Of a DNA stretch of 64,000 bases, positions 3,086 to 61,308 are shown piece after piece. The stretch lies in contig JACPKY010000002.1 in assembly GCA_016186795.1 (NCBI GenBank), positions 989,892 to 1,053,891 on the forward strand. Reading direction: 5' to 3'. Within the stretch, counting starts at the first letter, position 1. The number at the start of each line of letters is the position of its first letter. The notes beneath the pieces were generated by a model. It ran no database searches. It worked only from the letters and a program-made list of their open reading frames with translations, and was not told where the DNA came from. The translations under genes and the position numbers were made by a program. The DNA comes from Candidatus Gottesmanbacteria bacterium (lineage in GTDB: Bacteria > Patescibacteriota > Microgenomatia > 2-02-FULL-39-11).

Positions 3086-3094
3086 CTTTGACGA

Positions 3095-4347: not shown

Positions 4348-4356
4348 ATTATTAAG

Positions 4357-4428: not shown

Positions 4429-4452
4429 TCAAGTTTTCCCATTCTACGGTAG

Positions 4453-4481
4453 TTGAGAAAAAAATTCAATTTCGCTATAAT
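4453..4481 (+). promoter_or_regulatory. Sigma-70-type promoter: TTGAGA, 17-bp spacer, TATAAT
   Basis: Perfect -35/-10 consensus spacing read directly from the sequence, upstream of the orphan transcript. Confidence 0.5.
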
Positions 4482-4487
4482 GTGGGT

Positions 4488-23726: not shown

Positions 23727-24674
23727 ATGCAGAGACTTCTTCTCATTGACGGCCATGCCATTTTGCACCGTGCGTTTCATGCGTTACCACCCCTTACCAC
23801 CTCAAAAGGGCAGCAGGTGAACGCGGTCTACGGGTTTATAACGATGCTTTTGAGGGTTTTAGAAGAGTATAAACCTACTCATGTTGCGGTTGCCTTTGAC
23901 CGTCCGAAACCAACATTCCGAAAGAAGCTTTTCGATGGATATCAGGCGAAAAGACCTAAGATGGATAAGGAACTGATTCCTCAAATTGCGGTAGTCCATA
24001 CGGTTTTGGAGACGATGAAGATCCCTGTATTTGAACTCGACGGGTATGAGGCAGATGATGTTTTGGGAACACTTGCCATGCAGGCAAAAAGGAAAAAGAT
24101 GGAAGCAATTATTGTGACGGGAGATAGGGATTTACTGCAACTTGTGAACAGTCACGTGAAAGTCGCGTTGCCGGTAAAAGGCATTTCCGAATCGAAACTC
24201 TATGATGAAGAGGAGGTCGTAAAAAAGTGGGAAATCCACCCTTTCCAGGTAGCAGATTTTAAAGCATTGACAGGGGATCAATCAGACAATTACCCAGGTG
24301 TTGCCGGTATTGGTCCGAAGACCGCTTCATCCCTTTTGACACAATTTAAAACTCTTGAGGGAATGTACAAACATCTTGAGAAGATAGGGAATGCTTCGCT
24401 TCGGGAAAAATTGGAGACACACAAAGAGTCTGCGGAACTTTCAAAAAAGCTCGCAACTATTGTCACCGATGTGCCAGTTCATTTCAACACTTCAGAGAGT
24501 AAGCTACATAATCTCAATACACTTGATACGCAACTCCTTCTCGACCACTTAGAGTTTCGAAGTTTAATACCGAGATTGTCATTGAAAAAGGAACCAGTAA
24601 ACAGTAAACAGAAAACAGTGAACAGCGAAAAGATAAAATCGGAAATAAAAGATCAACAGATAAAATTATTTTAA
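23727..24674 (+). CDS. 5'-3' exonuclease (Pol I N-terminal/FEN-like domain protein)
   Basis: LLIDGHAILHRAFHALP start and H3TH region. C-terminus carries a K/N/Q/S-rich tail encoded by NAAACAG repeats. Confidence 0.8.
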   Translation: MQRLLLIDGHAILHRAFHALPPLTTSKGQQVNAVYGFITMLLRVLEEYKPTHVAVAFDRPKPTFRKKLFDGYQAKRPKMDKELIPQIAVVHTVLETMKIPVFELDGYEADDVLGTLAMQAKRKKMEAIIVTGDRDLLQLVNSHVKVALPVKGISESKLYDEEEVVKKWEIHPFQVADFKALTGDQSDNYPGVAGIGPKTASSLLTQFKTLEGMYKHLEKIGNASLREKLETHKESAELSKKLATIVTDVPVHFNTSESKLHNLNTLDTQLLLDHLEFRSLIPRLSLKKEPVNSKQKTVNSEKIKSEIKDQQIKLF

Positions 24675-24677
24675 TTT

Positions 24678-25826
24678 ATGCGTGTAGCACTCGTTCACGA
24701 CTATATAAAAGAATACGGAGGAGCCGAAAGAGTATTGGAATCCCTCCATGAGATTTGGCCAGAAGCTCCGATCTATACAACTGTCTATTTACCAGAATTT
24801 TTAGGTCCACATAGGAAACGGTTTGTACGTTGGAAGATAATTCCCTCTCGTCTGAACGGAGTACCTTTTGCTGAAAAACTTATAAGTCCCATTCGAATTC
24901 TTACTCCGTGGATTTTTGAGAATTGGGATTTTACTTCCTATGATGTTGTTATCGTTTCTGCAACTGGTGCCTATTTTCCCAATCTGATTGTACGAAAACC
25001 CCACACACTTCACATCTGTTACTGCCATACACCTCCTCGGTACCTCTATGGATATCCAACCGCGAGAAACTGGCAAAAGAGCGTTTTTGGGAAAATTGTT
25101 GGTTCGATTATCAATCATTCTCTTCGACAGATTGATTTTCTAGCATCACAGCGGCCTGATTTTTTTATTGCCAATTCCAATGAAGTGAGAAAAAGAATTG
25201 AGAAGTTCTATAGAAGAGAAGCGGAAGTGATATACCCGCCAGTTGAAATATCAAAAATCAAATATCAAAAATCAATCCGCCAGCTGGCGGACAAAAATAA
25301 AAAAGAAGATTATTATTTAACTGGAGGAAGGTTAGCCAGGGCAAAACGGATTGAGCTTGCTATCGAAGCATGCAATAGACTGAAATTACCCCTTAAAGTC
25401 GTTGGGAAGTCATTTGCGGATTATGGGGAAGAGTTGAGAAAGATTGCAGGACCAACTGTTGAGTTTTTAGGAGAAGTTCCAGACAGTGAATTAGGAGAAC
25501 TTTTTAGTCAGTGTCAGGCATTTATTTATCCAGCAGAACTAGAAGATTTTGGGATTATGCCGGTTGAGGCAATGTCGTATGGAGCACCAGTTATTGCATC
25601 AAGGGATGGGGGAGTGGCAGAAAGTGTCGTTGACGGCAAAACAGGAATACTTTTTGATGAGTATTCTATAGAAGATCTTATTGCTGCAATAAAAAAAATA
25701 CAAAAGCTCAATATTAAACAAGAAGATTGCATAAAGCAAGCAAAGAAATTTAGTAAAGCAAGATTTAAGAAGGAAATACGGAATTTCGTTGAGACGAAAT
25801 TCAAGAAGCATGCCAGAACTTCCTGA
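24678..25826 (+). CDS. Glycosyltransferase family 4 (GT-B); carries an in-frame palindromic-repeat insertion
   Basis: EDFGIMPVEAMSYGAPVIASRDGG motif. The insert ISKIKYQKSIRQLADKNKK interrupts the conserved VIYPPVE...YYLTGGRL region. Confidence 0.7.
   Translation: MRVALVHDYIKEYGGAERVLESLHEIWPEAPIYTTVYLPEFLGPHRKRFVRWKIIPSRLNGVPFAEKLISPIRILTPWIFENWDFTSYDVVIVSATGAYFPNLIVRKPHTLHICYCHTPPRYLYGYPTARNWQKSVFGKIVGSIINHSLRQIDFLASQRPDFFIANSNEVRKRIEKFYRREAEVIYPPVEISKIKYQKSIRQLADKNKKEDYYLTGGRLARAKRIELAIEACNRLKLPLKVVGKSFADYGEELRKIAGPTVEFLGEVPDSELGELFSQCQAFIYPAELEDFGIMPVEAMSYGAPVIASRDGGVAESVVDGKTGILFDEYSIEDLIAAIKKIQKLNIKQEDCIKQAKKFSKARFKKEIRNFVETKFKKHARTS
25248..25297. repeat. Palindrome-centred repeat element, copy 1, in-frame inside the GT4 gene
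   Basis: Tandem ATATCAAAAATCAA x2, then the perfect 16-bp palindrome TCCGCCAGCTGGCGGA (25276-25291), then CAAAAA. The 34-mer at 25264-25297 is identical to copies at 29751-29784 and 44367-44400. Confidence 0.75.
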
Positions 25827-26661
25827 GGTAGAAACAATAAGACTCCAGTTACAAAAGGTATTGGTTGGAGAAAAGATCGCCGCGACTTATATTCTTTCCG
25901 ATAGGTCCTTTCAAGGGGATGCAAAGCATTTAGAGGGTACCACAATTAAGGGTGTCAGACGCTTTGGGAAAATGATAGCTATAGATTTTGAGAATGGGTA
26001 TGCTTTGGTGGTTCACTTAAAAATGACTGGGCAGCTACTATTTCAGATAACAGATAATAGTAAACAGAAAACAGATTTACCAAATAAACATACAAGAGTG
26101 ATTATTCAATTTCATTCTGGTGGTAAGTTATTTTTCAATGACCAGAGGAAATTTGGGTGGATGAGGATAGTATCAATAAACAAGGAACAAGGAACAAAAA
26201 ACGGATTAAATACGCTAGACAATCTGTTAGAAAATCTAGGGCCAGATCCGTTGCATGAGTTAAACGCTGAAAAGTTATATAAGATCCTTCAGACATCAAA
26301 AAGGCCGGTCAAATTAGTCCTTATGGATCAACGGAAGATTTCCGGAGTGGGAAATATTTATGCAAATGATGCTCTATACCTTTCCGGAATTCATCCGCGG
26401 ACTTTCGGTAACCAACTATCTCATAAACAAGGGAAAAACTTATACCGTAATTTAGTGAAAGTACTCAAAAGTGGCATCAAATGGAAAGGGGCATCAAGGC
26501 AGCATTTTCGCGACATTTATGGACAGAAAGGTCAAGTACAGGATCATTTTCTTGTTTACGAAAGAACTGGTCAGGTATGTCCTCAAGGCCACAAACATAT
26601 TCAAAAATTCCAACTCGGGGGTCGGGGTACGTATTTTTGTCCTCAATGTCAAATTCGATAG
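25810..26661 (+). CDS. mutM: Formamidopyrimidine-DNA glycosylase
   Basis: N-terminal MPELPEVE (catalytic Pro2 and Glu3). C-terminal C4 zinc finger CPQGHKH...CPQC. Confidence 0.85.
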   Translation: MPELPEVETIRLQLQKVLVGEKIAATYILSDRSFQGDAKHLEGTTIKGVRRFGKMIAIDFENGYALVVHLKMTGQLLFQITDNSKQKTDLPNKHTRVIIQFHSGGKLFFNDQRKFGWMRIVSINKEQGTKNGLNTLDNLLENLGPDPLHELNAEKLYKILQTSKRPVKLVLMDQRKISGVGNIYANDALYLSGIHPRTFGNQLSHKQGKNLYRNLVKVLKSGIKWKGASRQHFRDIYGQKGQVQDHFLVYERTGQVCPQGHKHIQKFQLGGRGTYFCPQCQIR

Positions 26662-26676
26662 TACGGGGTAGATATT

Positions 26677-26976
26677 TTATTTAATATCTTCTAGTTTCTT
26701 TTGAAGGGCTTTAATTCGTACGATCCGTTGGTCGAGGTCATTTGCTTTCACCTTTTGAGTGGCTTTGGAGAATTGATTATATATCTCTGCTTCTTGGGTG
26801 AGAAGCGAAACTTGTTGCATGAGCCAATCCGCTTGCAGATCGAGAATTTCCGAAATAGCTAAACAGAGTGGATTATCAATCTTCTGAGCACTATCAATAA
26901 GTTCATTCACAAGCGCTTCCAACTCTTTATCAAGATGAAGATTTTGAAGATGTGATTTTAGTTGAGGTTTCGTCAT
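26677..26976 (-). CDS. Hypothetical coiled-coil protein
   Basis: 99-aa ORF only. Confidence 0.25.
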   Translation of the reverse strand: MTKPQLKSHLQNLHLDKELEALVNELIDSAQKIDNPLCLAISEILDLQADWLMQQVSLLTQEAEIYNQFSKATQKVKANDLDQRIVRIKALQKKLEDIK

Positions 26977-26997
26977 AGGTCAATATTACACCTTCTC

Positions 26998-27621
26998 CTA
27001 AGGTACAGCACGCAACATAGGTTGTAGACCCCGTATTGAAAGAACATTCTCTAAACATGTGACTGCTATATCCAGCGCTCCAGAGTGGATAAATTTTGAC
27101 GCAACCTCTTGAGCTGGAATTGATTTTCTATACAGTTGTGCCTGCCATTCTAATGATCGATTGTTAATTTCTTTTTTCATTGAATTTGCTCCTGATTGAA
27201 AGTATTTTACGAAGCGGTTTCCCCATTCATGCGATACACGAAATGTCCCTTGGCATCGGTCTCCAAGTTCTTTTGCTCGTTCAATAATTGGTGTTGAGAC
27301 AGATGTCACTTTTTCTCGCAAAATTGCGACTGATCCTGCCGTTTGTCTGATTTCCTCTATGGGGGTCTGGATCTGTTGCTTTTGCTCCTTAGGTTCGGTA
27401 TGGATTTTTTCTCTTTCCAACTGTGCGCGAATGAGTGCCAGCTCATTTGCTTCTTCTTTTGCTAAAGCGACGGGATCGATCTGAGATAACGTGGAAGGAA
27501 TAGTAGGATTTTCAGTTGTAGGTGGTTTGTTAGGAAGAGGTGGTTTCAGTTCTGGCGCTGCTTCTATCATTGTGCATTTCTCATTGCACCAGATAGAGAA
27601 GCACATTGTCAAGGGAATCAC
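26998..27621 (-). CDS. Hypothetical protein
   Basis: 207-aa ORF with a P/T-rich N-terminus. No motif. Confidence 0.25.
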   Translation of the reverse strand: MIPLTMCFSIWCNEKCTMIEAAPELKPPLPNKPPTTENPTIPSTLSQIDPVALAKEEANELALIRAQLEREKIHTEPKEQKQQIQTPIEEIRQTAGSVAILREKVTSVSTPIIERAKELGDRCQGTFRVSHEWGNRFVKYFQSGANSMKKEINNRSLEWQAQLYRKSIPAQEVASKFIHSGALDIAVTCLENVLSIRGLQPMLRAVP

Positions 27622-27655
27622 ATGAAACGAATTGTTTTGTTATAATACTACTTGA

Positions 27656-28357
27656 ATGGATAAGTCCAAGCCAGTCATAATTTCTCTTGGTGGTTCTCTT
27701 GTCGTTCCCAATGGTGGGATTGACTCCACTTTTCTTTCTGCTTTCAGTGAATTTATCAGAATCAAGATAACGCTTGGTTGGAGATTTTTTATTGTTGTTG
27801 GAGGAGGAGCAACGGCTCGAATGTATATTGAGGGAGCACGTGCAATTGTTGGCTCGATAACTGACTGGGATTTAGACTGGTTGGGAATTCATACAACACG
27901 GCTGAACGCTCATCTTATCCGTACGATATTCCAGGACGTTGCCCATCCGAGAATTATTGAAAATTACGAAAAGAAAATTGAAGACTTGAAAGAACCGTTA
28001 GTTGTTGCGTCAGGATGGAAACCAGGAAGGTCAACAGATTATGATGCTATTATTTTGGCAAGAGATTATGGTGCCGGAGCAATTATTAACATGTCCAATA
28101 TCGTGAGCGTTTGTGATAAAGATCCGAACAGGTATCCAGATGCTAAACCTGTTCATCAGCTGACATGGGAAAAATTTCAGGAATTGATTGGAACCGAATG
28201 GCACCCAGGCAGTAATGTTCCATTTGATCCGATAGCAACGAAACTTGCCCACGAGCTTGGGTTGTCTGTATTTATCGTTGGTAGTGACCTTGAGAATCTG
28301 GAGCTGATATTTTCGGGAAAATCAGATTTTGTTGGGACTATCATTACTCCTGAATGA
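27656..28357 (+). CDS. pyrH: UMP kinase (archaeal-type amino-acid-kinase fold)
   Basis: ISLGGS start and FIVVGGGATARMY glycine-rich motifs of the carbamate/UMP kinase family. About 230 aa. Confidence 0.6.
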   Translation: MDKSKPVIISLGGSLVVPNGGIDSTFLSAFSEFIRIKITLGWRFFIVVGGGATARMYIEGARAIVGSITDWDLDWLGIHTTRLNAHLIRTIFQDVAHPRIIENYEKKIEDLKEPLVVASGWKPGRSTDYDAIILARDYGAGAIINMSNIVSVCDKDPNRYPDAKPVHQLTWEKFQELIGTEWHPGSNVPFDPIATKLAHELGLSVFIVGSDLENLELIFSGKSDFVGTIITPE

Positions 28358-29427
28358 TTCTAACGCGTCTTGCCCTTTCTAATTTTCGTCAGTATATAAA
28401 GCGAAATCTCTCTCTTTCTCCAAAGACCACAGTTCTTGTAGGGAGTAATGCTATTGGCAAAACAAACCTTCTGGAATCTATCTATCTACTTTCGTACGGG
28501 AAAAGTTTTCATACGAGTGATGAGCGTGAGATGATTTCCTTTACGAAGGAATTCGCCCGGGTGAAGGGTGAATTCCAAGAGGATGTTACTCTTGAGGTTT
28601 TTCTCACCCGTGGAGAAGTAGAGAAGATCCGGACTCCGTATAAAAAGTTTACAGTCAATGGGGTAGGAAAGCGCCTTGTTGATTTCACAGGGAATCTCAA
28701 GGTGGTTCTGTTCTGGCCATTGGATCTTGATTTGGTGACGGACTCTCCTTCACTTCGACGGAAATATCTCAGTAACGTATTAGTCCAAGTAGATCATGAG
28801 TATCGGAGGTGTCTTTTATCATACGAAAGGGGACTTAGGCAGCGCAATAAAATTCTTGAGAATATCCGGGAAGGGAAAGCATCACAGTCACAACTTCCTT
28901 TCTGGAATCAGTTACTTATTAAAACCGGTTCATACATTACCCAGAAAAGGAGACAGTACATTGACTTTGTGAATACGTTTCACCCTCCCCATGAGGCATT
29001 TCAAGGAATGAGGTATCGACTAGTCTATGATACAAGCGTTATATCCGATGATCGACTAGCAAAATACAAAGATGCAGAGATTGCTTCCGGAGTGACACTC
29101 GTTGGACCACATCGGGATGATGTTATTATCGAGATTACCCTGAAAGAAGCTTCCAATTCATTTAAAAATCTGTCACATTTTGGCAGTCGAGGAGAGCAAA
29201 GACTTGGAGTACTTTTCATAAAAATCGCCGAACTGCAATTTATTCAGGAGCAAACTGGTGTCACGCCTTTATTTCTCCTTGATGATATTTTATCCGAACT
29301 TGATCACAAACACCGACAAATTATCTTTGAGATGACGAAGAATCAACAAACAATCATGACGACAACAGATCTGCATTTTATCGATAAAAAACATCTCTCC
29401 CGTGTTGAGCTTGTTTCTCTTCCATAG
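28354..29427 (+). CDS. recF: DNA replication and repair protein RecF
   Basis: Walker A LVGSNAIGKTNLLES, signature and LLDDILSELD Walker B of an SMC-like ABC ATPase. Confidence 0.85.
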   Translation: MILTRLALSNFRQYIKRNLSLSPKTTVLVGSNAIGKTNLLESIYLLSYGKSFHTSDEREMISFTKEFARVKGEFQEDVTLEVFLTRGEVEKIRTPYKKFTVNGVGKRLVDFTGNLKVVLFWPLDLDLVTDSPSLRRKYLSNVLVQVDHEYRRCLLSYERGLRQRNKILENIREGKASQSQLPFWNQLLIKTGSYITQKRRQYIDFVNTFHPPHEAFQGMRYRLVYDTSVISDDRLAKYKDAEIASGVTLVGPHRDDVIIEITLKEASNSFKNLSHFGSRGEQRLGVLFIKIAELQFIQEQTGVTPLFLLDDILSELDHKHRQIIFEMTKNQQTIMTTTDLHFIDKKHLSRVELVSLP

Positions 29428-29442
29428 TATGATGGACGAATC

Positions 29443-30387
29443 ATGGAAAATTCTCTCTCAATCTATCTAAAAAGTATCAAAATTCCAGAGAAGTCTTCCC
29501 ATAAAGGTCAAAATGGGAGACTTCTCCTTGTTGGAGGATCTCATCTTTTTCATGCAGCGTCTCTTTGGTCTCTCACGACCGCTTCTCGTATTGTTGATCT
29601 TGTACATTATGCTTCGATAGAGGAGAATAATAAAATTGTTCAGAACCGAAAGGAAGAGTTCCGAAACGGGATTATCATACCTCGTTCGGAGATTGAAAGT
29701 TATATTGATGAAGATGATTGCATTTTAATCGGGCCGGGAATGGTACGTGAAGATCAAAAATCAATCCGCCAGCTGGCGGACAAAAAGCAAAAATACATAT
29801 CAAAAATTAAAAATTTAAAGGAAGTTAATCAGATTCAAGATGAAGGAGTACTAACTTATTACTTGACGAAATATTTGCTTGAGAAATATCCTCATAAAAA
29901 ATGGGTGATCGATGCCGGATCATTGCAGATGATGGAGCTTTCTTGGATTCCCAAAAACGCAATTTTGACCCCACACCGTAAAGAATTCGAGATGCTCAAG
30001 TTCAAAGTTCAAAGTGAAAAGTTAAAAGTCTTCCTTAAAACGAAAAAATTAGATGAGCAGTTAAAATTATTTGCAAAGGAATATAACTGCATTATTTTAT
30101 TGAAAGGCGAAGTTGATTACATAGCTTCACCGACACAATTTGAGAAAATAGAAGGTGGTAATGCCGGAATGACCAAAGGAGGGACAGGGGATGTTTTGGC
30201 TGGGCTTGTGGCAGCATTGTATTGTAAAAACGATGCATTTTCCTCCGCAGTGGTTGCTTCCTACATAAACAAAAAAGCCGGGGATGATCTATTCAAAACT
30301 CATGGGTATTGGTTTAATGCTTCGGACCTTTCAAATCAAATACCCAAAACAATGAAAGAGGTTTTTGAGAGGACGTCTCCTAAATAA
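29443..30387 (+). CDS. NAD(P)H-hydrate dehydratase (YjeF C-terminal/carbohydrate-kinase-like); carries an in-frame palindromic-repeat insertion
   Basis: GPG...DAGSL...GGTGDVLAG motifs. The insert QKSIRQLADKKQKYISKIKNLKE lies between conserved blocks. Confidence 0.6.
   Translation: MENSLSIYLKSIKIPEKSSHKGQNGRLLLVGGSHLFHAASLWSLTTASRIVDLVHYASIEENNKIVQNRKEEFRNGIIIPRSEIESYIDEDDCILIGPGMVREDQKSIRQLADKKQKYISKIKNLKEVNQIQDEGVLTYYLTKYLLEKYPHKKWVIDAGSLQMMELSWIPKNAILTPHRKEFEMLKFKVQSEKLKVFLKTKKLDEQLKLFAKEYNCIILLKGEVDYIASPTQFEKIEGGNAGMTKGGTGDVLAGLVAALYCKNDAFSSAVVASYINKKAGDDLFKTHGYWFNASDLSNQIPKTMKEVFERTSPK
29751..29784. repeat. Palindrome-centred repeat element, copy 2 (34-mer identical to copy 1; same reading frame as copy 1)
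   Basis: ATCAAAAATCAATCCGCCAGCTGGCGGACAAAAA, palindrome at 29763-29778. Confidence 0.75.
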
Positions 30388-31816
30388 CAATTTTTACCAT
30401 TCCTTTGGTTGCATCAACTTCAACCATTTGCCCGTTGTTAAGTACTTTTGTTGCATTACCTGTACCAACGATGCACGGAATCCCAAATTCTCGAGAAACA
30501 ATGGCAGCGTGACTGGTAATTCCTCCTTCATCGGTCACAATTGCCGCAGCTTTTCTCATAGCAGAAACGTAGTCGGGGTGAGTGGAGGGCGCAACGAGAA
30601 TATTTCCAGTTTTTACTTTCTTTATATCTTTTACCCCTTTCACAATTCGTACTACTCCCCGGGCAATACCGCTTGAAGCAACTTGCCCTTTTATTTCTTC
30701 CGTTTGGTCTGAATTATCGGTCAAGTGGAACATACTAAGAGCTATTTTTACGTCTTTGCCGGCAAGACAAACAAGATTTTTGTGCACATCGAGGTAAGAA
30801 ACGAACCCCTTCTTTCTATTTCGAACAAGTTTTTGTGATATTGTCCGGTGACCATCAAGAAATGTGCTGATATCTGAAATTTGGAGAAAGCTACTATCTT
30901 TTGGGTGTATTTTCATCCTCCGTGCTATTTCTCCGAAAAAGGAAAGAGCGTAGAAGACTCCTTGACGTCTGAAGTCGTCTCGGACATCTTTTATGTAGAC
31001 GAACCGTTTTGCGGCAAAAAGATAGGAGAGATCATTCTTTTTAATATGGAGTTTCTTGGCATAAAAAGAGAAAAGTTTAATTTTCTTTTTATTTATAGGC
31101 GGAAGTTGCACGATATATCTTTGAAATTCTGATCTCGTCCAAGGACTATTGTGAAGATCCAAACATGAGAGCCATTTATATTTCTCATAAAGAGTCGTAA
31201 ATACATTACTTTTGAAATTTCCCTGTAGTTTGTTTCCCGCATATTGAAGTCTGAGTGCAGTTGAGGGAAAGTCAGGTGTAAAAAGTGAATCGAGAATATC
31301 CTGACGGCTGTTTTGATTATTCTGTTTTTGATACCTATCGAGAATAGATGTAGCTTCCTCTGAGATGAAATTATTGATGATAAAAGATGTCCACGCATAG
31401 ACGGAATACTCAAAAAGCTTTGTTTGGTATTGTTGGTAAAGCCTTTTAAGCTGTTTATCTGTTTTAGATTTTAGATTGAGATTTGCTAGAGTTTTACAGA
31501 ATCGGACATATTCTTTTCCCAAGCGGATTAACTCTCTCTCATAACGAATAAGTTTTTTCAGATTTTTGGTGTATTTTGCATTTAAAGACTCAACGACATC
31601 ACGCCAGGCAGTTTCATCGATATAGAATGCAGTATTTGGTCCTTCTGGGATGACAACCTGGTCAATTGAAGGTTTTGGGATATGGGTTTTGATAAGGTTT
31701 GAAAGACAAAGAATTGCACCTTCCGAGTACTGCACGCCATAGTCTCTGACATATATTTTTTTCCAAGAGATTGAGGGAAGCTTCTTTTGGAAAATAGGTG
31801 TAGGAATATTTTTCAT
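30380..31816 (-). CDS. PEP-utilizing enzyme mobile (phosphohistidine swivel) domain protein with an unknown ~370-aa N-terminal region
   Basis: C-terminal VTDEGGITSHAAIVSREFGIPCIVGTG is the PEP-utilizers His-domain signature. No ATP-grasp domain was seen. Confidence 0.5.
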   Translation of the reverse strand: MKNIPTPIFQKKLPSISWKKIYVRDYGVQYSEGAILCLSNLIKTHIPKPSIDQVVIPEGPNTAFYIDETAWRDVVESLNAKYTKNLKKLIRYERELIRLGKEYVRFCKTLANLNLKSKTDKQLKRLYQQYQTKLFEYSVYAWTSFIINNFISEEATSILDRYQKQNNQNSRQDILDSLFTPDFPSTALRLQYAGNKLQGNFKSNVFTTLYEKYKWLSCLDLHNSPWTRSEFQRYIVQLPPINKKKIKLFSFYAKKLHIKKNDLSYLFAAKRFVYIKDVRDDFRRQGVFYALSFFGEIARRMKIHPKDSSFLQISDISTFLDGHRTISQKLVRNRKKGFVSYLDVHKNLVCLAGKDVKIALSMFHLTDNSDQTEEIKGQVASSGIARGVVRIVKGVKDIKKVKTGNILVAPSTHPDYVSAMRKAAAIVTDEGGITSHAAIVSREFGIPCIVGTGNATKVLNNGQMVEVDATKGMVKIVI

Positions 31817-31819
31817 TTC

Positions 31820-32398
31820 TTATTCCCTAAAAATTGGCTCTTTTGAGAGTCCGAGTTCCTTCCGGACATTTTTTATGCGATTGACGTATTCCCGAAAGAT
31901 CTCATCCTTCTTGTGAAGACGATAAAAACCCTCTGCACCTGCATAGAGAGAACATTCAAAGACGTCGGCATCTTTGGCAAGCTCAACATACGGTTTTTCC
32001 GTATATACCTGTTTGTCGCTGTGACTTGCTATTGCTTCGGTGATCGTTTGTATTTCATCGAATGGAAAAGAATGAGATTTTATTAGTATGTCTTTTGCCA
32101 TTTCAGCACCCAATCTAGCATGGTTAGCATATTTACCCGTCACGATAGCATAAATATCATGGAGAACGCAGATAATCTCAGTAATTTCCACGTCAAGACC
32201 GCGCTTAATAGCAAGGATTCGTCCTATTTGAACAGTTCCTGCATGATGTTTTAACTCCCAAACAACGGAGTTTTCTCTTTTGTCGTCCGGAATTTTACTC
32301 TCCAAGATCATTTTCGTAACCAGGCGTTGGATCTTTTCAGAACGAGAGAGAGTACTTCCTTTGAAGTGATGGTAGTCTTTGAGCATAGGGCTTTTCAA
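31820..32398 (-). CDS. HD-domain phosphohydrolase
   Basis: H...HD (ICVLHDIYA) metal-binding pattern. 192 aa. Confidence 0.5.
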   Translation of the reverse strand: MKSPMLKDYHHFKGSTLSRSEKIQRLVTKMILESKIPDDKRENSVVWELKHHAGTVQIGRILAIKRGLDVEITEIICVLHDIYAIVTGKYANHARLGAEMAKDILIKSHSFPFDEIQTITEAIASHSDKQVYTEKPYVELAKDADVFECSLYAGAEGFYRLHKKDEIFREYVNRIKNVRKELGLSKEPIFRE

Positions 32399-32844
32399 AG
32401 AAATATCTTATACCCTTCTGGCCCATAGAGTTCTTCATTGAAAAATTTTGTCCGAGACGGAGAAATGCGATAAATTTTACCTTTGATCTTACCGGTTTTC
32501 ATACTTTGGTAATTGATAACATTTTCAAATCCAGGATTTTTTGTATTCCAGAGCTTGAGGGCGTGTTTGATTTCTTTTTCCTCTGTAACTTCGTTGGCAT
32601 TTCCTTCGATTTGCACTCCCTTCTTTTTGTCTGCTACTCTTTGATGTGAGTCAAAAATTGCAACAGCAACAGATGTATTGCCAGAAATATTTTTGCAATG
32701 TTTCGACTTCGGTTCGCTGATAAAATATAAATCTCCTGAAGCATCTTCTGCATAAAATACAGTACAGATATATGGTTTTTTCGATACAGTCGCAAGATTT
32801 AATAGCCTCTGTGTTTTGAGGAAATTTAAAATATCTTTTTTCAT
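32395..32844 (-). CDS. Pyridoxamine 5'-phosphate oxidase-like FMN-binding split-barrel protein
   Basis: LLNLATVS...YFISEP pattern typical of the PNPOx-like fold. 149 aa. Confidence 0.45.
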   Translation of the reverse strand: MKKDILNFLKTQRLLNLATVSKKPYICTVFYAEDASGDLYFISEPKSKHCKNISGNTSVAVAIFDSHQRVADKKKGVQIEGNANEVTEEKEIKHALKLWNTKNPGFENVINYQSMKTGKIKGKIYRISPSRTKFFNEELYGPEGYKIFL

Positions 32845-33581
32845 ATAGTTGTCATATACCCGCCATCTACAACCAATATCTGTCCGGTAACATTTTTTGC
32901 TCCCGCAAGGTAGAGCATGACATCAGCAATTTCTCCTGGCATGATCCATCGCCTAGAAAGCGTTGTTGCCAGAAGATTTTTTTCTTCTTTTTGAGATTGT
33001 TTATCCCAGAAGCGCGTTTTCGTGAATCCAGGTGCAACGGCATTGACTGTAATATTTGGTGCGAGAATCTTAGCAAGTGCTTTCGTGAAACCCGTTACTG
33101 CAGAGCGAGCCGAGGTAAACGTAAGAATACTGGTACATCCAGTCAGTCCACAGATTGAAGAAACATTGATAATTGATCCTGATTTTCTTTTCTTCATTAA
33201 TTTTGCTGCTTCCTGACTGCAGTAAACCATACTGAAAAAATTTTCCTCAAATTCTTTGATCAAGTCTCTTCGGGTAATATCAAAAAATGGTTTTGGGGTA
33301 GCTAAACCCGCATTGTTAATAAGAATGTCAATCGTTCCAAAATATTCCTCTGACTCTTGGAATAACCGCTTTACTTGATTTGGATCAGAAACGTCTGCTT
33401 TTATACAGAGCGCATTTCGGCCCATTTGTTTTATCTGCTTTGCAACTTTTTCACCTTCACCGACGTCTGTTCTGCAGTTTATAACAACATTTGCACCTTC
33501 TATTGCAAATTTTATCGCTGCCTCTTTCCCGATTCCACTTGATGATCCAGTGATAAGAACAACGTGATCATTATATTTCAT
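32841..33581 (-). CDS. SDR-family oxidoreductase (FabG-like)
   Basis: TGSSSGIGK cofactor motif, NNAG, and a YxxxK catalytic region. Confidence 0.8.
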   Translation of the reverse strand: MKYNDHVVLITGSSSGIGKEAAIKFAIEGANVVINCRTDVGEGEKVAKQIKQMGRNALCIKADVSDPNQVKRLFQESEEYFGTIDILINNAGLATPKPFFDITRRDLIKEFEENFFSMVYCSQEAAKLMKKRKSGSIINVSSICGLTGCTSILTFTSARSAVTGFTKALAKILAPNITVNAVAPGFTKTRFWDKQSQKEEKNLLATTLSRRWIMPGEIADVMLYLAGAKNVTGQILVVDGGYMTTI

Positions 33582-33583
33582 GA

Positions 33584-33949
33584 TTAGTTATTCACTTTTT
33601 CAGCGATTTTGCTGAGTTGATAGGTAATGGTAACGGCAAGGACAGTAATAAGAATGGCATAGATAAAAAGTGAAATAATCCCGCTTCCTATTGAAAGATA
33701 CTCTTTTATGTAATTATTTACTAGTTCTTGAATGACATTATTCCACGCAAGAGCTGCAACAAGTCCAAAACCAGAAGTTGCCAGCGTGATCATTTGTTTA
33801 ATGACTGCTTTATGGAGAGCTTTTTTCTTTTTTTGTTGTAGCGACATATGGATAATAATAGCAACGTGAGGCTGAAAGTCAATCTCGGAGTGTTTGCTAA
33901 GGATGGGGAGTGTGAGATAATAATGCCATGTTTTCTCCAAAATATTCAA
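33584..33949 (-). CDS. Small hypothetical membrane protein
   Basis: 121 aa with 2 TM segments. Confidence 0.3.
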   Translation of the reverse strand: MNILEKTWHYYLTLPILSKHSEIDFQPHVAIIIHMSLQQKKKKALHKAVIKQMITLATSGFGLVAALAWNNVIQELVNNYIKEYLSIGSGIISLFIYAILITVLAVTITYQLSKIAEKVNN

Positions 33950-34977
33950 TAAGTAATAGAATTCTCAAAAACATTGGAGTCGTTGAAGCATCTCGTGAAG
34001 TTATTCTCAATGCTCCGCTTCTTCCTGCGTACGAGAAAAAATTCCGTGAGGAAGCAATTGTCCGAACCGTCCACCATGGCACGCATATCGAAGGGAATGA
34101 ACTAAATTTCACTGAGGCTGCTCAGGTTCTTAAAGGGAATGAAATTGTTGGAAGAGATAGAGACATTCAGGAGGTTCTAAACTACAGAAACGTATTGCGA
34201 TACCTCGATTTTATTGGACAAGGTGCGGAAACTGAAGGAAAAATTACAGAAAATGTGGTTGAAAAAGTTCACGCATTCGTTGTTGAAAAACTTTTGCCAA
34301 TCGAACAATGCGGTTCTTATCGGAAAACGCAAGTAGTTGTGAAAAATTCCATTACAGGAGAGATAACATTTCGTCCACCACCTGCAATTGAAGTTCCCTA
34401 TCAAGTAGAAGAGTTTTTATCTTGGTTAAATGCCCTGGAAAAAGATGAACTCCACCCAGTCTTAAAAGCAGGAATAACACACTATGAGCTCGTTCGTATC
34501 CATCCATTCGTTGACGGGAATGGCCGGATGGCAAGAGCTGTTGCAACACTTGTCCTATTCCTTGAAAACTATGACATCAAGAAGTTTTTTTCACTTGAGG
34601 AGTACTACGATCGAGATGCAGTTCATTACTACGATGCCCTCAAGTCAGCATCTGGTGGAGAGTTGACAAAGTGGCTTGAGTATTTCACCCAAGGACTTTC
34701 GATTGAATTGACTCGGATTAAAGAAAAAATCCTCAAACTTTCAACAGATGTGCAACTGAAAGAGAAGCTCGGTGGGAAACAGGTCTTTCTTACAGAGCGT
34801 CAGATTGGTATTATGGAGTATATTCAGCGTGTCGGGTACTTACAGAATCAAAGCTTTCCAGATTTATTTCCGAAAATTTCTGAAGACACCATCCTTCGGG
34901 ATCTCAAAGATCTGATGGACAAAGGGATTATCAAAAAAGTAGGAAAGACGAAGGCGGCACGGTATACGCTCGGATAA
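33928..34977 (+). CDS. Fic family protein (AMPylation/adenylyltransferase fold) with a C-terminal wHTH
   Basis: Canonical Fic motif HPFVDGNGRMARAV. N-terminal THIEGN segment resembles the inhibitory-helix motif. Confidence 0.85.
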   Translation: MFSPKYSISNRILKNIGVVEASREVILNAPLLPAYEKKFREEAIVRTVHHGTHIEGNELNFTEAAQVLKGNEIVGRDRDIQEVLNYRNVLRYLDFIGQGAETEGKITENVVEKVHAFVVEKLLPIEQCGSYRKTQVVVKNSITGEITFRPPPAIEVPYQVEEFLSWLNALEKDELHPVLKAGITHYELVRIHPFVDGNGRMARAVATLVLFLENYDIKKFFSLEEYYDRDAVHYYDALKSASGGELTKWLEYFTQGLSIELTRIKEKILKLSTDVQLKEKLGGKQVFLTERQIGIMEYIQRVGYLQNQSFPDLFPKISEDTILRDLKDLMDKGIIKKVGKTKAARYTLG

Positions 34978-34981
34978 TAGT

Positions 34982-35596
34982 ATGACGGCGAAACCATTTA
35001 CAGAAAGACATATCGATGAATTCGTGGGAAGGTTTTTCAATCCCGATGCGGTACCCACTCCAAGATCAGGATTTCAGTACGGACAAAATCCTTTTGCTTC
35101 TTACCTTCCGATGTTTGAAACATTTCAGCCAGAAACAGGAAGTTTTGTTTCCACAGGTAGTGATTTTTTACTAAGAAATGTTATGCCTCTTTCCATGATA
35201 CGTTTCAGCACCAATTCGGGAAGTATATATACCTCAAAAGTAATTGAAGTAGGAGAAAATGGTATTGGTGTTATTGGTGTGGTCCGGAACGATTTAATTC
35301 CCACTCACGGTTCCTCTTCCCAATTTTATGTAGGATGGCTTATCCACCTAACTGTAGGAGATCCTGCACATTGGAGTGAATATGCAGATGCTCCAGATTA
35401 TAAAGAATTTGGAAATGTTACCTATGTAAATCCACAGACAGTTCGGGAAAGGATTGAGAAAAAGATAGACGATCTCTATACCCAGTATGGGGAGTCATGG
35501 GTAGAAAAGAGTGCTACAGATATTCCGAATAATCCAATGAATTCTGAAGTGCATATTTTTGATACTCATCCGGTTTTACATATTGAGGTCGAATAA
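34982..35596 (+). CDS. Hypothetical protein, translationally coupled downstream of Fic
   Basis: 204-aa ORF starting 4 bp after the Fic stop. No motif. Confidence 0.3.
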   Translation: MTAKPFTERHIDEFVGRFFNPDAVPTPRSGFQYGQNPFASYLPMFETFQPETGSFVSTGSDFLLRNVMPLSMIRFSTNSGSIYTSKVIEVGENGIGVIGVVRNDLIPTHGSSSQFYVGWLIHLTVGDPAHWSEYADAPDYKEFGNVTYVNPQTVRERIEKKIDDLYTQYGESWVEKSATDIPNNPMNSEVHIFDTHPVLHIEVE

Positions 35597-35602
35597 GCAT
35601 TT

Positions 35603-38073: not shown

Positions 38074-38082
38074 TCTCCTTAG

Positions 38083-39297: not shown

Positions 39298-39356
39298 GAA
39301 AATGTATTATAGCAGATCATAGTAGTCTTCTCTTTCCTTTCGTATGCTACAATGAG

Positions 39357-41002: not shown

Positions 41003-41022
41003 AATCAGGAAAAATTTCAAGA

Positions 41023-41889: not shown

Positions 41890-41897
41890 AAAAAATC

Positions 41898-43259
41898 ATG
41901 AATATCATTGCCGATCTTCAACTCCATTCCAAATACGCAAGAGCAGTTTCTCAAGAGATGGTCATTCCCAAAATGTGGGAGTGGGGGAAGCGAAAAGGAA
42001 TTGGCATCTTAGCAACTGGCGATTGGACACATCCACTTTGGATGAGAGAGATAAAAACGTACTGCGAAGAGATGGGGAATGGACTACTGAAGCTCAAAAA
42101 TCATCCGCCAGTTGGCGGATCAAATATCAAAAATGAAGAGGATGGGCCGTATTTTTTATTAGAATCAGAAGTCTCGTGCATATACTCTCAAGGAGGAAAA
42201 GCAAGACGGATTCATACGCTCATTTGGGCTCCAACAGTTGAGAGCGCGGAAAAAATAAATAAAGAATTGACAAGACAGGGAGCAAACCTCATGTCAGATG
42301 GTAGACCTATCATCGGCCTTACCAGTATTGAGGTTTGTGATATCGTTTTTTCTATTGACCCGAAGTGTTTGATCATACCCGCTCATATTTGGACACCGTG
42401 GTTTTCCCTTTACGGATCGGAATCTGGTTTCGATTCAATATCTGAGGCATATGGGCGGTTTGCGAAAGATATTTATGCTGTGGAGACGGGCCTTTCAAGT
42501 GATCCAGCGATGAACTGGCGAATCAAGGAGCTGGATACACGCGCTATCGTCTCTTTTTCTGATGCTCATTCAGGACCAAAGTTGGGGAGAGAAGCGACAG
42601 TATTTGATTTACACACACTTAGTTTCGACTCAATACGAGAAGCGTTAAAGCAAAACAGTGAGGCCGAAAATCGAATAGCGTATACTATCGAGTTTTATCC
42701 CGAGGAGGGAAAATACCACTATACAGGTCATAGAAACTGTGATGTGAAGCAGACGCCTTCTCAAACACGGGAGAAAGGAACACTTTGCCCTGTCTGTGGA
42801 CGCAAACTTACTGTTGGAGTTATGCATAGAGTAGAAGAATTGGCAGGAAGAACCGAAGAAGAGTTGAAAATCATAAAAAGAGAATTAGGTGGTACGAAGA
42901 TGGAAGGGATATATTCAGAAACCTTTCCCAACAGGCCTTCGTATGTGATGATGGTTCCACTTCAGGAGATTTTATCCGAAGCAATTGGTACCGTCCCAAC
43001 AAGTGTCACTACTCAAAATGAATACAAAAAATTGACTGATCATTTAGGGGGAGAGTTTCACATTCTTTTACAAAAAGATCTTGCGGATATTGCCAAAGTT
43101 TCTGGGGAGCGCGTTGCCCAGTCAATTGAAAAGGTACGGAAGGGTAATATTGTTGTTGATCCGGGGTATGATGGAGTATTTGGTATTGTGAAAATTTGGG
43201 GAAATGAAAAGGAAAAAGAAGAGAAAGATGAGAAAGAGCAGTTGAGTTTGTTTGGATAA
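41898..43259 (+). CDS. PHP-domain protein, endonuclease Q-like (TIGR00375-type); carries an in-frame palindromic-repeat insertion
   Basis: N-terminal ADLQLHSKYA PHP start. Later His/Asp ligands. C-terminal Cys cluster C..CPVCGRKLTVGVMHRV. The insert KNHPPVGGSNIKNEEDG is present. Confidence 0.45.
   Translation: MNIIADLQLHSKYARAVSQEMVIPKMWEWGKRKGIGILATGDWTHPLWMREIKTYCEEMGNGLLKLKNHPPVGGSNIKNEEDGPYFLLESEVSCIYSQGGKARRIHTLIWAPTVESAEKINKELTRQGANLMSDGRPIIGLTSIEVCDIVFSIDPKCLIIPAHIWTPWFSLYGSESGFDSISEAYGRFAKDIYAVETGLSSDPAMNWRIKELDTRAIVSFSDAHSGPKLGREATVFDLHTLSFDSIREALKQNSEAENRIAYTIEFYPEEGKYHYTGHRNCDVKQTPSQTREKGTLCPVCGRKLTVGVMHRVEELAGRTEEELKIIKRELGGTKMEGIYSETFPNRPSYVMMVPLQEILSEAIGTVPTSVTTQNEYKKLTDHLGGEFHILLQKDLADIAKVSGERVAQSIEKVRKGNIVVDPGYDGVFGIVKIWGNEKEKEEKDEKEQLSLFG
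42094..42134. repeat. Palindrome-centred repeat element, copy 3 (one substitution in the core: TCCGCCAGTTGGCGGA; third reading frame)
   Basis: TCAAAAATCA-TCCGCCAGTTGGCGGA-TCAAATATCAAAAAT, core at 42104-42119. Confidence 0.65.
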
Positions 43260-44217: not shown

Positions 44218-45005
44218 GAGAGAGACGCTTACTTGCGGTTTTTGCTCATCCTGACGACGAAGCATTTGGTCCGGCTGGGGCAATTGCAAAATATGCACAT
44301 GAAGGAGTCGAGGTACATGTGTTGACAGCAACAAAAGGTGAAAAAGGCGAGTGGCAACAAGAGAAAATCAAAAATCAATCCGCCAGCTGGCGGACAAAAA
44401 TCAAAAGTGAGGAAGTAATTAAAATTACAGAAAAAGTGAAGATTGAACATGTAAGAGAAAAAGAATTATTGGCATCTGCAAAGATATTGGAGGTTGCGAA
44501 AGTAGAGTTCTTAGATTTTATAGACGGGACACTCTGTAATGCGGTATATCATAAGCTCGCTAATAAAGTTATTCAAAAGATCAATGCTTTTCAACCTCAT
44601 GTTGTTATAACATTGGATCGGCTAGGTGTTTCTGGGCATCTTGACCATATTGCGGTGTCTCTCACGACTACGTATGCATTTCAAAAAACAACATTTCCAA
44701 AGAAGTTGTACTATGAGTGTCTCCCTCAAAAAATCAGGAAAAACGATCCGGTGATGGATACCTATTTTATCTATTTTCCCGAAGGATTTCGTGATGAAGA
44801 AATAACCACCCGTATTGATTATTCTGCATATTGGGACAAAAAAGTTGCAGCGATGAGGGCACATAAAAGTCAGAGTAAAGACGTCGGCAATATCCTAACG
44901 AGACTTTCCAAATGGCCGAAGGTAGACTATTTCATACTCCAGATGCATCGGGGTGTTCCTGTAAAGTTACCGGAAACAGATTTGTTTGCAGGAGTAAAGA
45001 TTTAA
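44214..45005 (+). CDS. PIG-L/LmbE family deacetylase; carries an in-frame palindromic-repeat insertion
   Basis: AVFAHPDDEAFG zinc-binding motif. The insert EKIKNQSASWRTKIKSEEVIK is present. Confidence 0.8.
   Translation: MRERRLLAVFAHPDDEAFGPAGAIAKYAHEGVEVHVLTATKGEKGEWQQEKIKNQSASWRTKIKSEEVIKITEKVKIEHVREKELLASAKILEVAKVEFLDFIDGTLCNAVYHKLANKVIQKINAFQPHVVITLDRLGVSGHLDHIAVSLTTTYAFQKTTFPKKLYYECLPQKIRKNDPVMDTYFIYFPEGFRDEEITTRIDYSAYWDKKVAAMRAHKSQSKDVGNILTRLSKWPKVDYFILQMHRGVPVKLPETDLFAGVKI
44364..44400. repeat. Palindrome-centred repeat element, copy 4 (34-mer identical to copies 1 and 2; second reading frame)
   Basis: AAAATCAAAAATCAA-TCCGCCAGCTGGCGGA-CAAAAA, core at 44379-44394. Confidence 0.75.
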
Positions 45006-61256: not shown

Positions 61257-61308
61257 GGGATACTATACTATATCAAAAATAAAAAATCAAATATCAAAAA
61301 AAGATGGG

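Follow-up and report, generated by a model that had tools for sequence, protein, structure and literature searches.

Among the closest described systems are the RPEs of Rickettsia and the in-frame MITEs of Coxiella burnetii, which are intragenic palindromic repeats in reduced genomes, and the STRR of cyanobacteria, which are short tandemly repeated heptanucleotide sequences. The Rickettsia and Coxiella elements have been reviewed (PMC10969869, PMC5896051), and a bacterial excess of heptameric repeats has been described (PMC4692102). The repeat considered here resembles the RPEs and the Coxiella MITEs in that all are intragenic palindromic repeats that keep the reading frame and place an extra peptide at tolerant (surface) positions in reduced genomes. 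It is set apart by its size (∼45 nt, versus ∼100-150 nt for an RPE) and its Patescibacteria host, and its range spans several candidate phyla or classes, whereas RPEs occur in one genus. Its architecture also differs, since there are no terminal inverted repeats of the MITE kind: inverted repetition is limited to a perfect 16-bp palindrome at the centre, and the arms are direct repeats of AAAAATC-type heptamers. Furthermore, three reading frames are used, and placement is in heptamer-array hot spots that are shared with other hairpin families. Period 7 is the dominant short tandem-repeat period (12/29 TRF rows) in the window, by which we mean the whole stretch of 64,000 nt that was analysed. 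This is a likeness to STRR-type repeats, but in the present case the arrays are found within essential coding genes, have an A-rich coding strand, are length-constrained and form the setting for palindromic inserts. Full-text literature searches returned no description of the sequence, of its peptides or of in-frame palindromes in CPR.

The product of the host gene has 100% identity to a Candidatus Gottesmanbacteria protein at NCBI. The features of this gene, and the other copies of the repeat module in the window, are as follows:

29443..30387, plus strand: host gene, NAD(P)H-hydrate dehydratase (YjeF_C / Carb_kinase; Pfam 2.3e-34)
29750..29794, plus strand: copy 2 of the ∼45-nt module (left arm, core, right arm), in the YjeF_C gene
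29750-29764, plus strand: left arm of copy 2, an A-rich heptamer arm, AAGATCAAAAATCAA
29765-29780, no strand assigned: core of copy 2, a perfect 16-bp palindrome, TCCGCCAGCTGGCGGA; a single strand folds into a 6-bp stem with a 4-nt loop
29781-29794, plus strand: right arm of copy 2, an A-rich heptamer arm, CAAAAAGCAAAAAT
29795..29814, plus strand: rest of the heptanucleotide array 3' of the module, ACATATCAAAAATTAAAAAT, one base off ortholog P0003
29998..30029, plus strand: the other hypervariable heptamer array of this gene (GTTCAAA GTTCAAA GTGAAAA GTTAAAA), peptide FKVQSEKLKV
25261..25305, plus strand: copy 1 (core 25276-25291; 34-mer 25262-25295), in a GT4 glycosyltransferase gene (24678-25826), frame KSIRQLADK
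44364..44408, plus strand: copy 3 (core 44379-44394; 34-mer 44365-44398), in a PIG-L/LmbE-type deacetylase gene (44214-45005), frame KIKNQSASWRTKIKS
42093..42134, plus strand: copy 4, a variant, in an ORF (41868-43259) with a weak PHP_C match, frame KNHPPVGGSNIKN

A scan of the window places the 34-mer AGATCAAAAATCAATCCGCCAGCTGGCGGACAAA at 29751-29784 on the plus strand. The initial annotation had described this 34-mer as identical to copy 1, which holds for the last 32 bases; these are the same in copies 1-3, but the second base varies (AGATC in copy 2 versus ATATC / AAATC in copies 1 and 3). It had also placed the two copies in the same frame, correctly, as both translate as KSIRQLADK, with the full peptide of copy 2 being (E)DQKSIRQLADKKQK. 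Copy 4 is diverged (ATCCGCCAGTTGGCGGAT at 42103-42120), its centre being CAGTTG (C>T) and its junctions and flanks shifted by 1 nt. In total, the window contains three copies and this one variant, every one on the coding strand of an ORF that runs through it uninterrupted. The peptides differ (KSIRQLADK for copies 1 and 2, QSASWRTK for copy 3, HPPVGGS for copy 4), so all three frames are in use. Dinucleotide-preserving shuffles gave zero matches to the 34-mer, and matches to the 16-mer with three or fewer mismatches number four, against a shuffle mean of 0.1. A chance origin of the window repeats is thus excluded, and the 34-mer is confirmed as a genuine copy of a dispersed palindromic repeat, in frame within the YjeF_C gene.

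The module is built from an (AAAAATC)2-type arm, the palindrome and a second (AAAAATC)2-type arm. Its arm limits were set by positional conservation across 39 canonical copies, in which the arms are conserved as far as positions -15 and +14; the flanks have a lag-7 autocorrelation of 0.424, versus 0.272 in controls. At copy 1, the heptamer array reaches upstream to 25246. The RNA fold of the palindrome at 29765-29780 has an energy of -10.8 kcal/mol (z -2.8), and the GC-rich hairpins of all four window copies have stems of 6-7 bp, loops of 4 nt and energies of -10.8 to -11.9 kcal/mol. No Rfam family matches any of the window copies.

Within YjeF_C, the element lies 3' of GPGMVR and 5' of VIDAGSL, that is, between the GPG and DAGSL regions as first described, and the A-rich DNA reported to follow it does adjoin copy 2 and has period-7 structure. 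ACATATCAAAAATTAAAAAT together with the preceding CAAAAAT matches ortholog P0003 at 26/27 positions. The initial annotation further envisaged about 30 extra residues at this site. Query residues 106-151 align with only ∼15 residues of the solved homologue 3bgk, so that ∼31 residues are extra relative to that structure, but they are not a single insert: ∼25 of them (NLxEIxKIxDEGxQTYYLTKYLL) are conserved throughout the Gottesmanbacteria/Microgenomates family, and the variable part is limited to the first 21 residues, EDQKSIRQLADKKQKYISKIK. In an AlphaFold2 model of the protein (pLDDT 90.9 overall), the weakest stretch is 101-120, with a helix predicted at 105-119. The continuous ORF, the extra residues versus 3bgk and the low model confidence here, the lowest of any stretch, suggest that the element occupies a structurally tolerant position, and the host site would be a surface loop, itself a heptanucleotide array of fast turnover.

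The variability of this site is evident from a survey of 120 YjeF_C orthologs. Site 1 is hypervariable in all of them, being built from heptanucleotide arrays, and measures 3-32 aa, while site 2, the second array, ranges from 2 to 48 aa. YjeF_C proteins that are 88% identical outside both sites have unrelated sequences at the sites. The core is present at one or the other site in 8/120 orthologs, in differing frames; for example, P0007/8/10 have it at site 1 in another frame, and P0035, P0039, P0058 and P0104 have it at the second site. In other orthologs, different GC-rich hairpin families are found at both sites. P0003, the closest of the array-only versions, has a net difference of 12 nt from the window, with flanks matching at 16/16 and 26/27 nt. 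A comparison with orthologs lacking the repeat had been proposed at the outset, to see whether they hold a segment of the same length: palindrome-free orthologs are not empty here, and have heptamer-array segments of 3-32 aa, most often of 13-14 or 18 aa. This makes the site a hot spot for the whole family, at which orthologs bear the TCCGCCAGCTGGCGGA palindrome, other palindromes or none.

Outside the window, the flanked ∼45-nt module was found at 52 further loci in representative genomes, nearly all of them Patescibacteria from several classes. Their record titles name Gottesman-, Roizman-, Shapiro-, Nealson-, Nomura-, Yanofsky- and Falkowbacteria and Saccharibacteria, and include one single-cell genome. 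Only ∼45 genomes carry the module, as a rule in 1-3 copies and on different contigs. Some 45 of the 56 copies are inside long ORFs, where the three reading frames are about equally used and the A-rich strand is always the coding (sense) strand; the antisense strand contains TGA stops and looks like an intrinsic terminator. If orientation were random, with selection against stop codons only, one quarter of the surviving copies would be antisense; none of the 45 is, which has a probability of ∼2e-6 by chance. Near-identical copies thus occur in unrelated genes of several Patescibacteria classes, exclusively in sense orientation and in three frames. The open frames and the sense-only orientation are indirect indications that the inserted segment is translated. 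An assembly artefact is unlikely, given that the module is in frame and sense-only across independent NCBI, JGI and ENA assemblies and in the single-cell genome.

The identical sequence and the patchy distribution across classes fit horizontal spread. We lean towards reading the 34-mer as belonging to one copy of an interspersed repeat that is small, turns over quickly and spreads horizontally; this repeat would be non-coding in origin and tolerated as an in-frame loop segment. The YjeF_C copy would persist because its length preserves the reading frame, because its A-rich strand is free of stops in three frames and specifies hydrophilic, loop-type peptides (KSIRQLADK, NQSASWRTK, INPPAGGQ), and because it is in sense orientation. 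The most likely route of spread would be recombination or templated repair between the module arms and resident A-rich heptamer arrays; the module probably enters the arrays by recombination with its arms, which would also dictate sense orientation. Against this reading, the repeat has no linked transposase, recombinase or autonomous parent element, ∼1.2 Mb of fetched loci showed no related autonomous insertion sequence sharing its ends, and there are fewer copies per genome than expected of a repeat that proliferates. A benefit to the host, such as blocking of antisense transcription, would be hypothetical and secondary.

GltX alleles constrain the route. Where a GltX ortholog has the core, it stands in place of heptamer array of equal length: with core or with array, the allele is 33 nt long and has the same ends (CAAA.. 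and ..GATCAAAT). This equality makes an insertion of 16, 19 or 20 nt followed by 7-nt slippage impossible, while conversion from a donor with homologous arms is possible. Two transposition schemes are not supported as they stand. A 7-bp target-site duplication (a 26-nt unit plus 7, giving 33 nt) was hinted at by three loci (L005, L007, L037), but among the 39 canonical copies co-deviation at an offset of 33 is 16/71, which is the base rate. A 16-bp mini-transposon that makes a 3-4-bp duplication in heptamer arrays is incompatible with the equal-length replacement, and an immediate 3-nt direct repeat flanks only 10/95 low-GC core sites (∼2 expected); in about ten cases the array phase is recovered once the core and a further 3-4 nt are taken out, and we keep this scheme as a partial description only. 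A more speculative and less probable variant dispenses with a transposase altogether. The (AAAAATC)2 arms would be portable homology to surface-loop heptanucleotide arrays, spread would occur by recombination or uptake-biased allele replacement, and the exactness of the sequence would come from a trans-acting factor. The targets would be loops in essential proteins (YjeF_C, GltX, ProRS, IscS, PolI), with movement within and between genomes, even across classes, and together with the other hairpin families the loops would become a general, fast engine of protein-length variation.

Alternatively, the repeat could be moved by a trans-acting HUH/RAYT-like single-strand transposase. That is, it could be a REP/REPIN-like hairpin mobilised on single-stranded DNA by a RAYT (IS200-like Y1) transposase, with room only in the tolerant coding loops of compact genomes. 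REP/REPIN systems with RAYT (PMC3733652) have a similar short GC-rich hairpin that is terminator-like one way, several families per genome and, in some genomes, Y1 genes. The module matches this in part: several families of short GC-rich hairpin repeats share the same hot-spot loops, some element-bearing genomes have Y1_Tnp genes (L045, L034, L103), that of L045 with a different hairpin family inside and beside it, and the four window copies are on one strand, which is the G-rich strand by GC skew. REPs, however, are extragenic, usually imperfect palindromes with a GTAG/CGTC head, tens to hundreds of copies and a flanking RAYT (PMC3733652), none of which was seen for the module. Its flanks are ..AAATCAA and CAAAAATC.., with no GTAG/CGTC head, it is intragenic (4/4 copies in the window), and its copy number is low. 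A Y1_Tnp gene is found at 3 of ∼180 loci, about the chance frequency and with no spatial association with the module, and none is in the window. As strand-transfer insertion also does not predict the equal-length GltX replacement, we consider RAYT mobilisation improbable.

The terminator-like form of the antisense strand raises a different alternative, selection by the host on the hairpin. On this strand only, the GC-rich stem-loop is followed by a T/U-rich tract as in an intrinsic terminator, whereas the sense hairpin is followed by an A-rich tract. The copies could then be kept as useful cis-elements, either terminating intragenic antisense transcription in an AT-rich genome or, as a sense RNA hairpin, tuning mRNA decay or translation. 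Ranked by likeness to a terminator, the four window copies take the first four places in 25000-44800, always on the antisense strand (7 pairs and a loop of 4 nt, followed by TGATTTTTGA). Four Roizmanbacteria GltX genes share an unchanged 32-nt block, although the adjacent third codon positions nearly all differ, and this block is exactly the hairpin plus a 10-nt tract (the would-be antisense U-tract). Near-core variants mostly have changes in the 4-nt centre (13/21 in the loop); stem changes are mostly G.T-compatible, and one is compensatory. The invariant block and the pattern of variants would also fit selection on a hairpin or on a binding site. On the other hand, a terminator needs pairing and a U-tract but no exact 16-mer, so the identical stems and arms across classes are unexplained. 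The element is also absent from most genes and genomes, its sites turn over very fast, and it is patchy among close orthologs (8/120 YjeF_C; 4/99 GltX, among ones that are 75-100% identical). Host selection of this type would therefore be rather unlikely as the main explanation.

The repeat could instead be the binding site of a dimeric DNA-binding protein, that is, a centromere-like or nucleoid-organising palindrome (cf. parS, Noc- and RacA-binding sites) embedded wherever coding tolerates it. Such palindromes, like the DNA uptake sequences of Neisseria and Haemophilus, are likewise short, exact, often intragenic motifs conserved across related lineages. The perfect 16-bp palindrome has the length of parS, its copy number is low, and its conservation is exact across classes. 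Four copies lie within 19 kb, adjoining recF, and the variation is concentrated at the dyad centre. Further, a metagenome scan for the 16-mer core found it in many low-GC contexts without the heptamer arms, which the 45-nt module leaves unexplained. But there is no match beyond chance to the parS consensus TGTTNCACGTGAAACA in the window, and the core shares with parS only its length and dyad symmetry. Arms that are conserved, asymmetric, A-rich and identical in unrelated genes are not a feature of parS-type motifs, and would be unexpected in sites that evolved in place. In other genomes the copies are on different contigs, GC skew shows no origin within the window, and no candidate protein was identified. 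A binding site has little probability.

The settings of the core in low-GC contigs (coding in all frames, tRNA-adjacent and intergenic) are also compatible with a DNA-uptake-type signal, whereby competent Patescibacteria would preferentially take up DNA with the motif and spread it by homologous allele replacement. Exact conservation of the motif with diverged flanks, the equal-length alleles and the patchy distribution in related GltX genes are all in keeping with this. The density, however, is four copies in 64 kb in the window and 1-3 flanked copies per genome, far below the ∼1 per kb of known uptake sequences, and the conserved arms are unexplained, so we regard an uptake signal as very improbable. 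Two other origins of the core were dismissed. Carriage by phage is not favoured, since the 55 viral contigs that have the core show it in GC-rich or terminator-like surroundings and always without the arms; for a tRNA intron, ARAGORN predicts no tRNA spanning the core where the context is tRNA-like.

If the reading of a spreading interspersed repeat is true, essential enzymes of ultra-small bacteria hold hot-spot loops of 7-nt tandem arrays, and tiny GC-rich hairpin repeats keep rewriting and invading these loops with the frame intact. Protein evolution of this kind would be unusual, and it is open to test. Remodelling of essential proteins by tiny repeats in small Patescibacteria genomes would account for the puzzling low-complexity K/N/Q/S inserts of CPR proteins, and would caution annotators and structure predictors that such segments are non-homologous. 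The presence or absence of blocks would also provide strain-level markers. For the exact TCCGCCAGCTGGCGGA family, no filled/empty pair was found (nearest homologs: YjeF_C, 68% identical; IscS, 57%), and the 90% clusters of ten core-bearing proteins contain no array-only members. A sister hairpin family does provide such a case, in which a hairpin-plus-heptamer block was gained or lost as one in-frame piece between near-identical strains; the event may have been a deletion and not an insertion. Here L178/L179 differ from L180 by 5 SNPs in 3.6 kb and by a single 51-bp block, which consists of two AAAACTC units, a 29-nt hairpin and CAAAACTT, with AAAACT repeats at its bounds.

The copy 2 element is a real feature that was correctly spotted in the initial annotation, and its 34-mer, AGATCAAAAATCAATCCGCCAGCTGGCGGACAAA, is centred on a perfect 16-bp palindrome, TCCGCCAGCTGGCGGA (29765-29780). 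All four window copies are on the + strand and lie in + strand ORFs, and their peptide readings show that all three frames are used:

Copy 1, 25262-25295 (+), 33/34 match to the 34-mer, in a GT4 glycosyltransferase ORF, reading KSIRQLADK
Copy 2, 29751-29784 (+), the 34-mer itself, in the YjeF_C / NAD(P)HX dehydratase ORF, reading KSIRQLADK
Copy 3, 44365-44398 (+), 33/34 match to the 34-mer, in a PIG-L-type deacetylase ORF, reading QSASWRTK
Copy 4, 42103-42120 (+), centre CAGTTG with junctions shifted by 1 base, in an ORF with a weak PHP_C hit, reading HPPVGGS

Copies 1 and 2 do share one frame, as had been claimed, but their stated identity holds only for the last 32 bases, since the second base differs. 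The 34-mer was never matched in window shuffles, and a relaxed 16-mer search gave four matches against a mean of 0.1 in the shuffles.

The pattern AATC(N)ATCCGCCAGYTGGCGGA(N)CAAA, searched in one genome per species, matches 52 loci in ~45 genomes, nearly all of them labelled as Patescibacteria from several classes (Gottesman-, Roizman-, Shapiro-, Nealson-, Nomura-, Yanofsky- and Falkowbacteria, Saccharibacteria, and one single-cell genome). A genome usually has 1-3 flanked copies, which lie on different contigs. The module consensus is AAAATCAAAAATCAA-core-CAAAAATCAAAAAT, with arm conservation extending to at least -15 and +14, so that the module is ~45 nt, or 15 codons, long; a period of 7 is strong in the flanks (lag-7 identity 0.424 vs 0.272 at control positions). 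Long ORFs host ~45 of 56 copies, with the A-rich strand coding in every such case and the three frames (KINPPAGGQK, NQSASWRTK and KSIRQLADK) about equally used. The A-rich strand is stop-free in all three frames, and two frames of its complement contain TGA. With random orientation and selection against stop codons alone, one quarter of the surviving copies would be antisense, and the observed 0/45 has a probability of ~2e-6.

Two MAGs labelled Bacteroidota also have the flanked core, at fetched loci L002 (4153-4179, Bacteroidales) and L011 (Saprospiraceae), and the element family may therefore not be strictly limited to Patescibacteria. Both cores have short-ORF, apparently intergenic settings, that of L002 amid CAAATTC/AAAATTA heptamers. 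Other element-bearing MAGs are titled ‘uncultured Gammaproteobacteria’ (L007, L020, L021, L022, L026, L042 and L052), and these labels are probably wrong; L022 and L005, the latter titled Patescibacteria, have only 6 differences over 100 nt of sequence flanking the element. In L133 (2184-2241), two cores 42 nt apart within one ORF give a tandem 14-residue protein repeat (EANPPAGGEEPKTE EANPPAGGEEVK).

An NCBI protein from Candidatus Gottesmanbacteria matches the window YjeF_C protein at 100% identity. The AlphaFold2 model of the window protein, with 120 orthologs as input, is confident (pLDDT 90.9, pTM 0.92), and its structural matches are NAD(P)HX dehydratases (TM 0.66-0.75); residues 101-120 are the weakest stretch, with a helix predicted at 105-119. 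Residues 10-105 and 152-308 align with residues 44-140 and 156-310 of 3bgk, which leaves ~31 residues extra at the copy 2 position. These extra residues are not a single insert: NLxEIxKIxDEGxQTYYLTKYLL is kept across the whole family, and the variable part is only 21 residues, EDQKSIRQLADKKQKYISKIK.

Among the 120 orthologs, this variable loop (site 1) is 3-32 residues long, with modes at 13-14 and 18, and a second variable array (site 2; FKVQSEKLKV in the window, 29998-30029) is 2-48 residues long. In the DNA of five orthologs both are heptanucleotide arrays (RATCAAA, GTTCAAA, AATTCCA and others). The nearest array-only version, in homolog P0003, matches the window flanks at 16/16 and 26/27 nt and differs only in the middle (AGATCAAAGAT vs core+CAAAAAG in the window, net 12 nt). 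The core is found at site 1 with a different frame and offset in P0007/8/10, at site 2 in P0035, P0039, P0058 and P0104, and at a third position in a further homolog, L146. Different GC-rich palindromes, some read in two frames, occupy sites 1 and 2 in other orthologs (for example SRFNRD / IPIQSG, TCCCGATTCAATCGGGA-type as back-translated from protein), and the site sequences are unrelated even between proteins 88% identical elsewhere. Equal length in repeat-less orthologs had been named as the observation that would count against an insert; here the outcome is mixed, because palindrome-less orthologs are usually 3-8 residues shorter, yet not empty.

Turnover can be seen directly in P0060 and P0065, which are identical apart from 17 residues at site 1; between their contigs there are 5 SNPs over 3.6 kb, plus a single 51-bp block. 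The block (two AAAACTC units, an imperfect hairpin of 29 nt and CAAAACTT, in this order) is in frame, has AAAACT repeats at its bounds, and is a sister hairpin family of the same architecture, a GC-rich hairpin within heptamer arms. This shows that hairpin-plus-heptamer blocks are gained or lost as a single in-frame piece between near-identical strains. A similar 18-residue block separates IscS P0261/P0305 from P0262, and among 120 homologs the IscS loop with the canonical element in L037 is a hot spot too. A loop further upstream in the L037 IscS gene (3396-4724, -) holds another low-complexity insert, SKSEILNSKQIQNSDVQNSKLNSMFQNSES, so several array hot spots are possible in one protein. The 29-nt hairpin (CCGCCTCCGCCGAGGCTTCGGCGGGCAGG) has one exact match, far beyond chance, at L181 3593-3621 (a GC-rich viral contig, IMG/VR UViG).

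In glutamyl-tRNA synthetase (GltX), five loci share one position of the element, which is read as KSIRQLAD in four Roizmanbacteria and NQSASWR in one Gottesmanbacteria. The four Roizmanbacteria genes have an invariant 32-nt block, CAAAAATCAA-core-TCAAAT, next to which nearly all third codon positions differ. In the 99 of the 120 closest orthologs with both anchor motifs located, the segment is 27, 28 or 30 residues, of equal length with or without the core, and the core occurs in only 4/99, scattered among relatives of 75-100% identity. At the DNA level, the array allele CAAAGTCAAAAGTCAAAAGTCAAAGATCAAATT and the core allele CAAAAATCAATCCGCCAGCTGGCGGATCAAATA are both 33 nt with ends in common. 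Insertion of 16, 19 or 20 nt with 7-nt slippage cannot produce alleles of one length; a donor whose arms are similar can do so by replacement.

On balance, the evidence points to a small repeat of high turnover that spreads horizontally and is tolerated in frame as a segment of a loop, because identical modules occur in unrelated genes and classes with a patchy distribution, because the hot spots are common to other hairpin families and a block indel is seen directly, and because orientation is sense-only and the sense frames are stop-free. Recombination of the element arms with resident A-rich arrays would be the most economical route of spread, and would give both the fixed orientation and the equal-length replacement. 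Mobilization by a Y1 (IS200/RAYT-like) transposase is possible; Y1_Tnp genes are present in three loci (Pfam Y1_Tnp 8e-13 for L045), but these genes show no association with the element. The IS200-like Y1 gene of L045 (4009-4878, -) occurs with another hairpin family that reads RSTPGVE (back-translated, ~TCAACTCCTGGAGTTGA), with one copy just upstream and one in frame within the gene.

The element most resembles, in behaviour, the Rickettsia palindromic elements and the in-frame MITEs of Coxiella. Unlike MITEs, it has neither terminal inverted repeats nor consistent duplication; unlike REPs, it is intragenic and of low copy number, without a GTAG/CGTC head or flanked RAYT. Full-text literature searches found nothing on the sequence, its peptides, or CPR in-frame palindromes.

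The invariant GltX block and the bias of variation to the loop would also fit three functional readings, namely an antisense terminator, a hairpin in RNA or DNA, and a protein-binding site. Thirteen of 21 near-core variants in ~1 Mb of low-GC DNA change the central four bases only, and stem changes are mostly C>T with G.T pairing retained, plus one compensatory pair. The sense-strand RNA folds into a stem of 6 bp closed by a 4-nt loop (-10.8 kcal/mol); the antisense strand has the hairpin followed by TTGATTTTTGA, and the four window copies rank as the top four terminator-like sites of 25000-44800, each of them on the minus strand. No Rfam family matches the element. A parS identity is excluded by sequence, and the density is far below that required of an uptake signal.

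A metagenome scan with the 16-mer alone gave at least 121 sites. Among the matches listed, 95/121 are in contigs of <50% GC, although from base composition the 16-mer would be over ten times likelier in GC-rich DNA, and most lack the canonical arms. At least ~10 are in heptamer arrays of other sequence, which come back into phase once the core and 3-4 nt are removed. Others, again among the matches listed, are at tips of longer hairpins, in coding loops (most commonly in the PPAGG frame) or beside tRNA fragments. The 45-nt module gives no explanation of these arm-less sites. In L080, L074, L105, L139 and L171 the core lies beside tRNA-like sequence or interrupts it. In L080 (reverse strand, ~1430-1580), the 5' half of a tRNA-Met breaks off in its anticodon loop, immediately at the core, and downstream a second tRNA-Met 5' start follows, with at least its 5' part running to the end of the fetched locus; the arrangement looks like a rearrangement or integration junction.

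Elsewhere in the window there are a full-length group I intron and tRNAs noted with it; neither ARAGORN nor Rfam called a tRNA around the intron on the + strand:

4517-4720 (+), group I intron (Rfam 72.6 bits, E 1.7e-16)
4356-4428 (-), tRNA-Met
3013-3086 (+), tRNA-Ile(tat)

Tandem repeats in the window most often have a period of 7 (12/29 TRF rows), with TRF tracts as follows:

2961-2994, period-7 tract
24595-24625, period-7 tract
26044-26076, period-7 tract
26179-26197, period-7 tract
31462-31477, period-7 tract
48540-48561, period-7 tract
61272-61300, period-7 tract, a palindrome-free (ATCAAAA)n array between genes

Two 24-nt heptamer tracts 1.45 kb apart, 24595-24618 and 26051-26074, are 88% identical (CAGTAAACAGTAAACAGAAAACAG / CAGATAATAGTAAACAGAAAACAG) and flank the GT4 gene of copy 1, one at the 3' end of a 5'-3' exonuclease ORF and one within an Fpg ORF.
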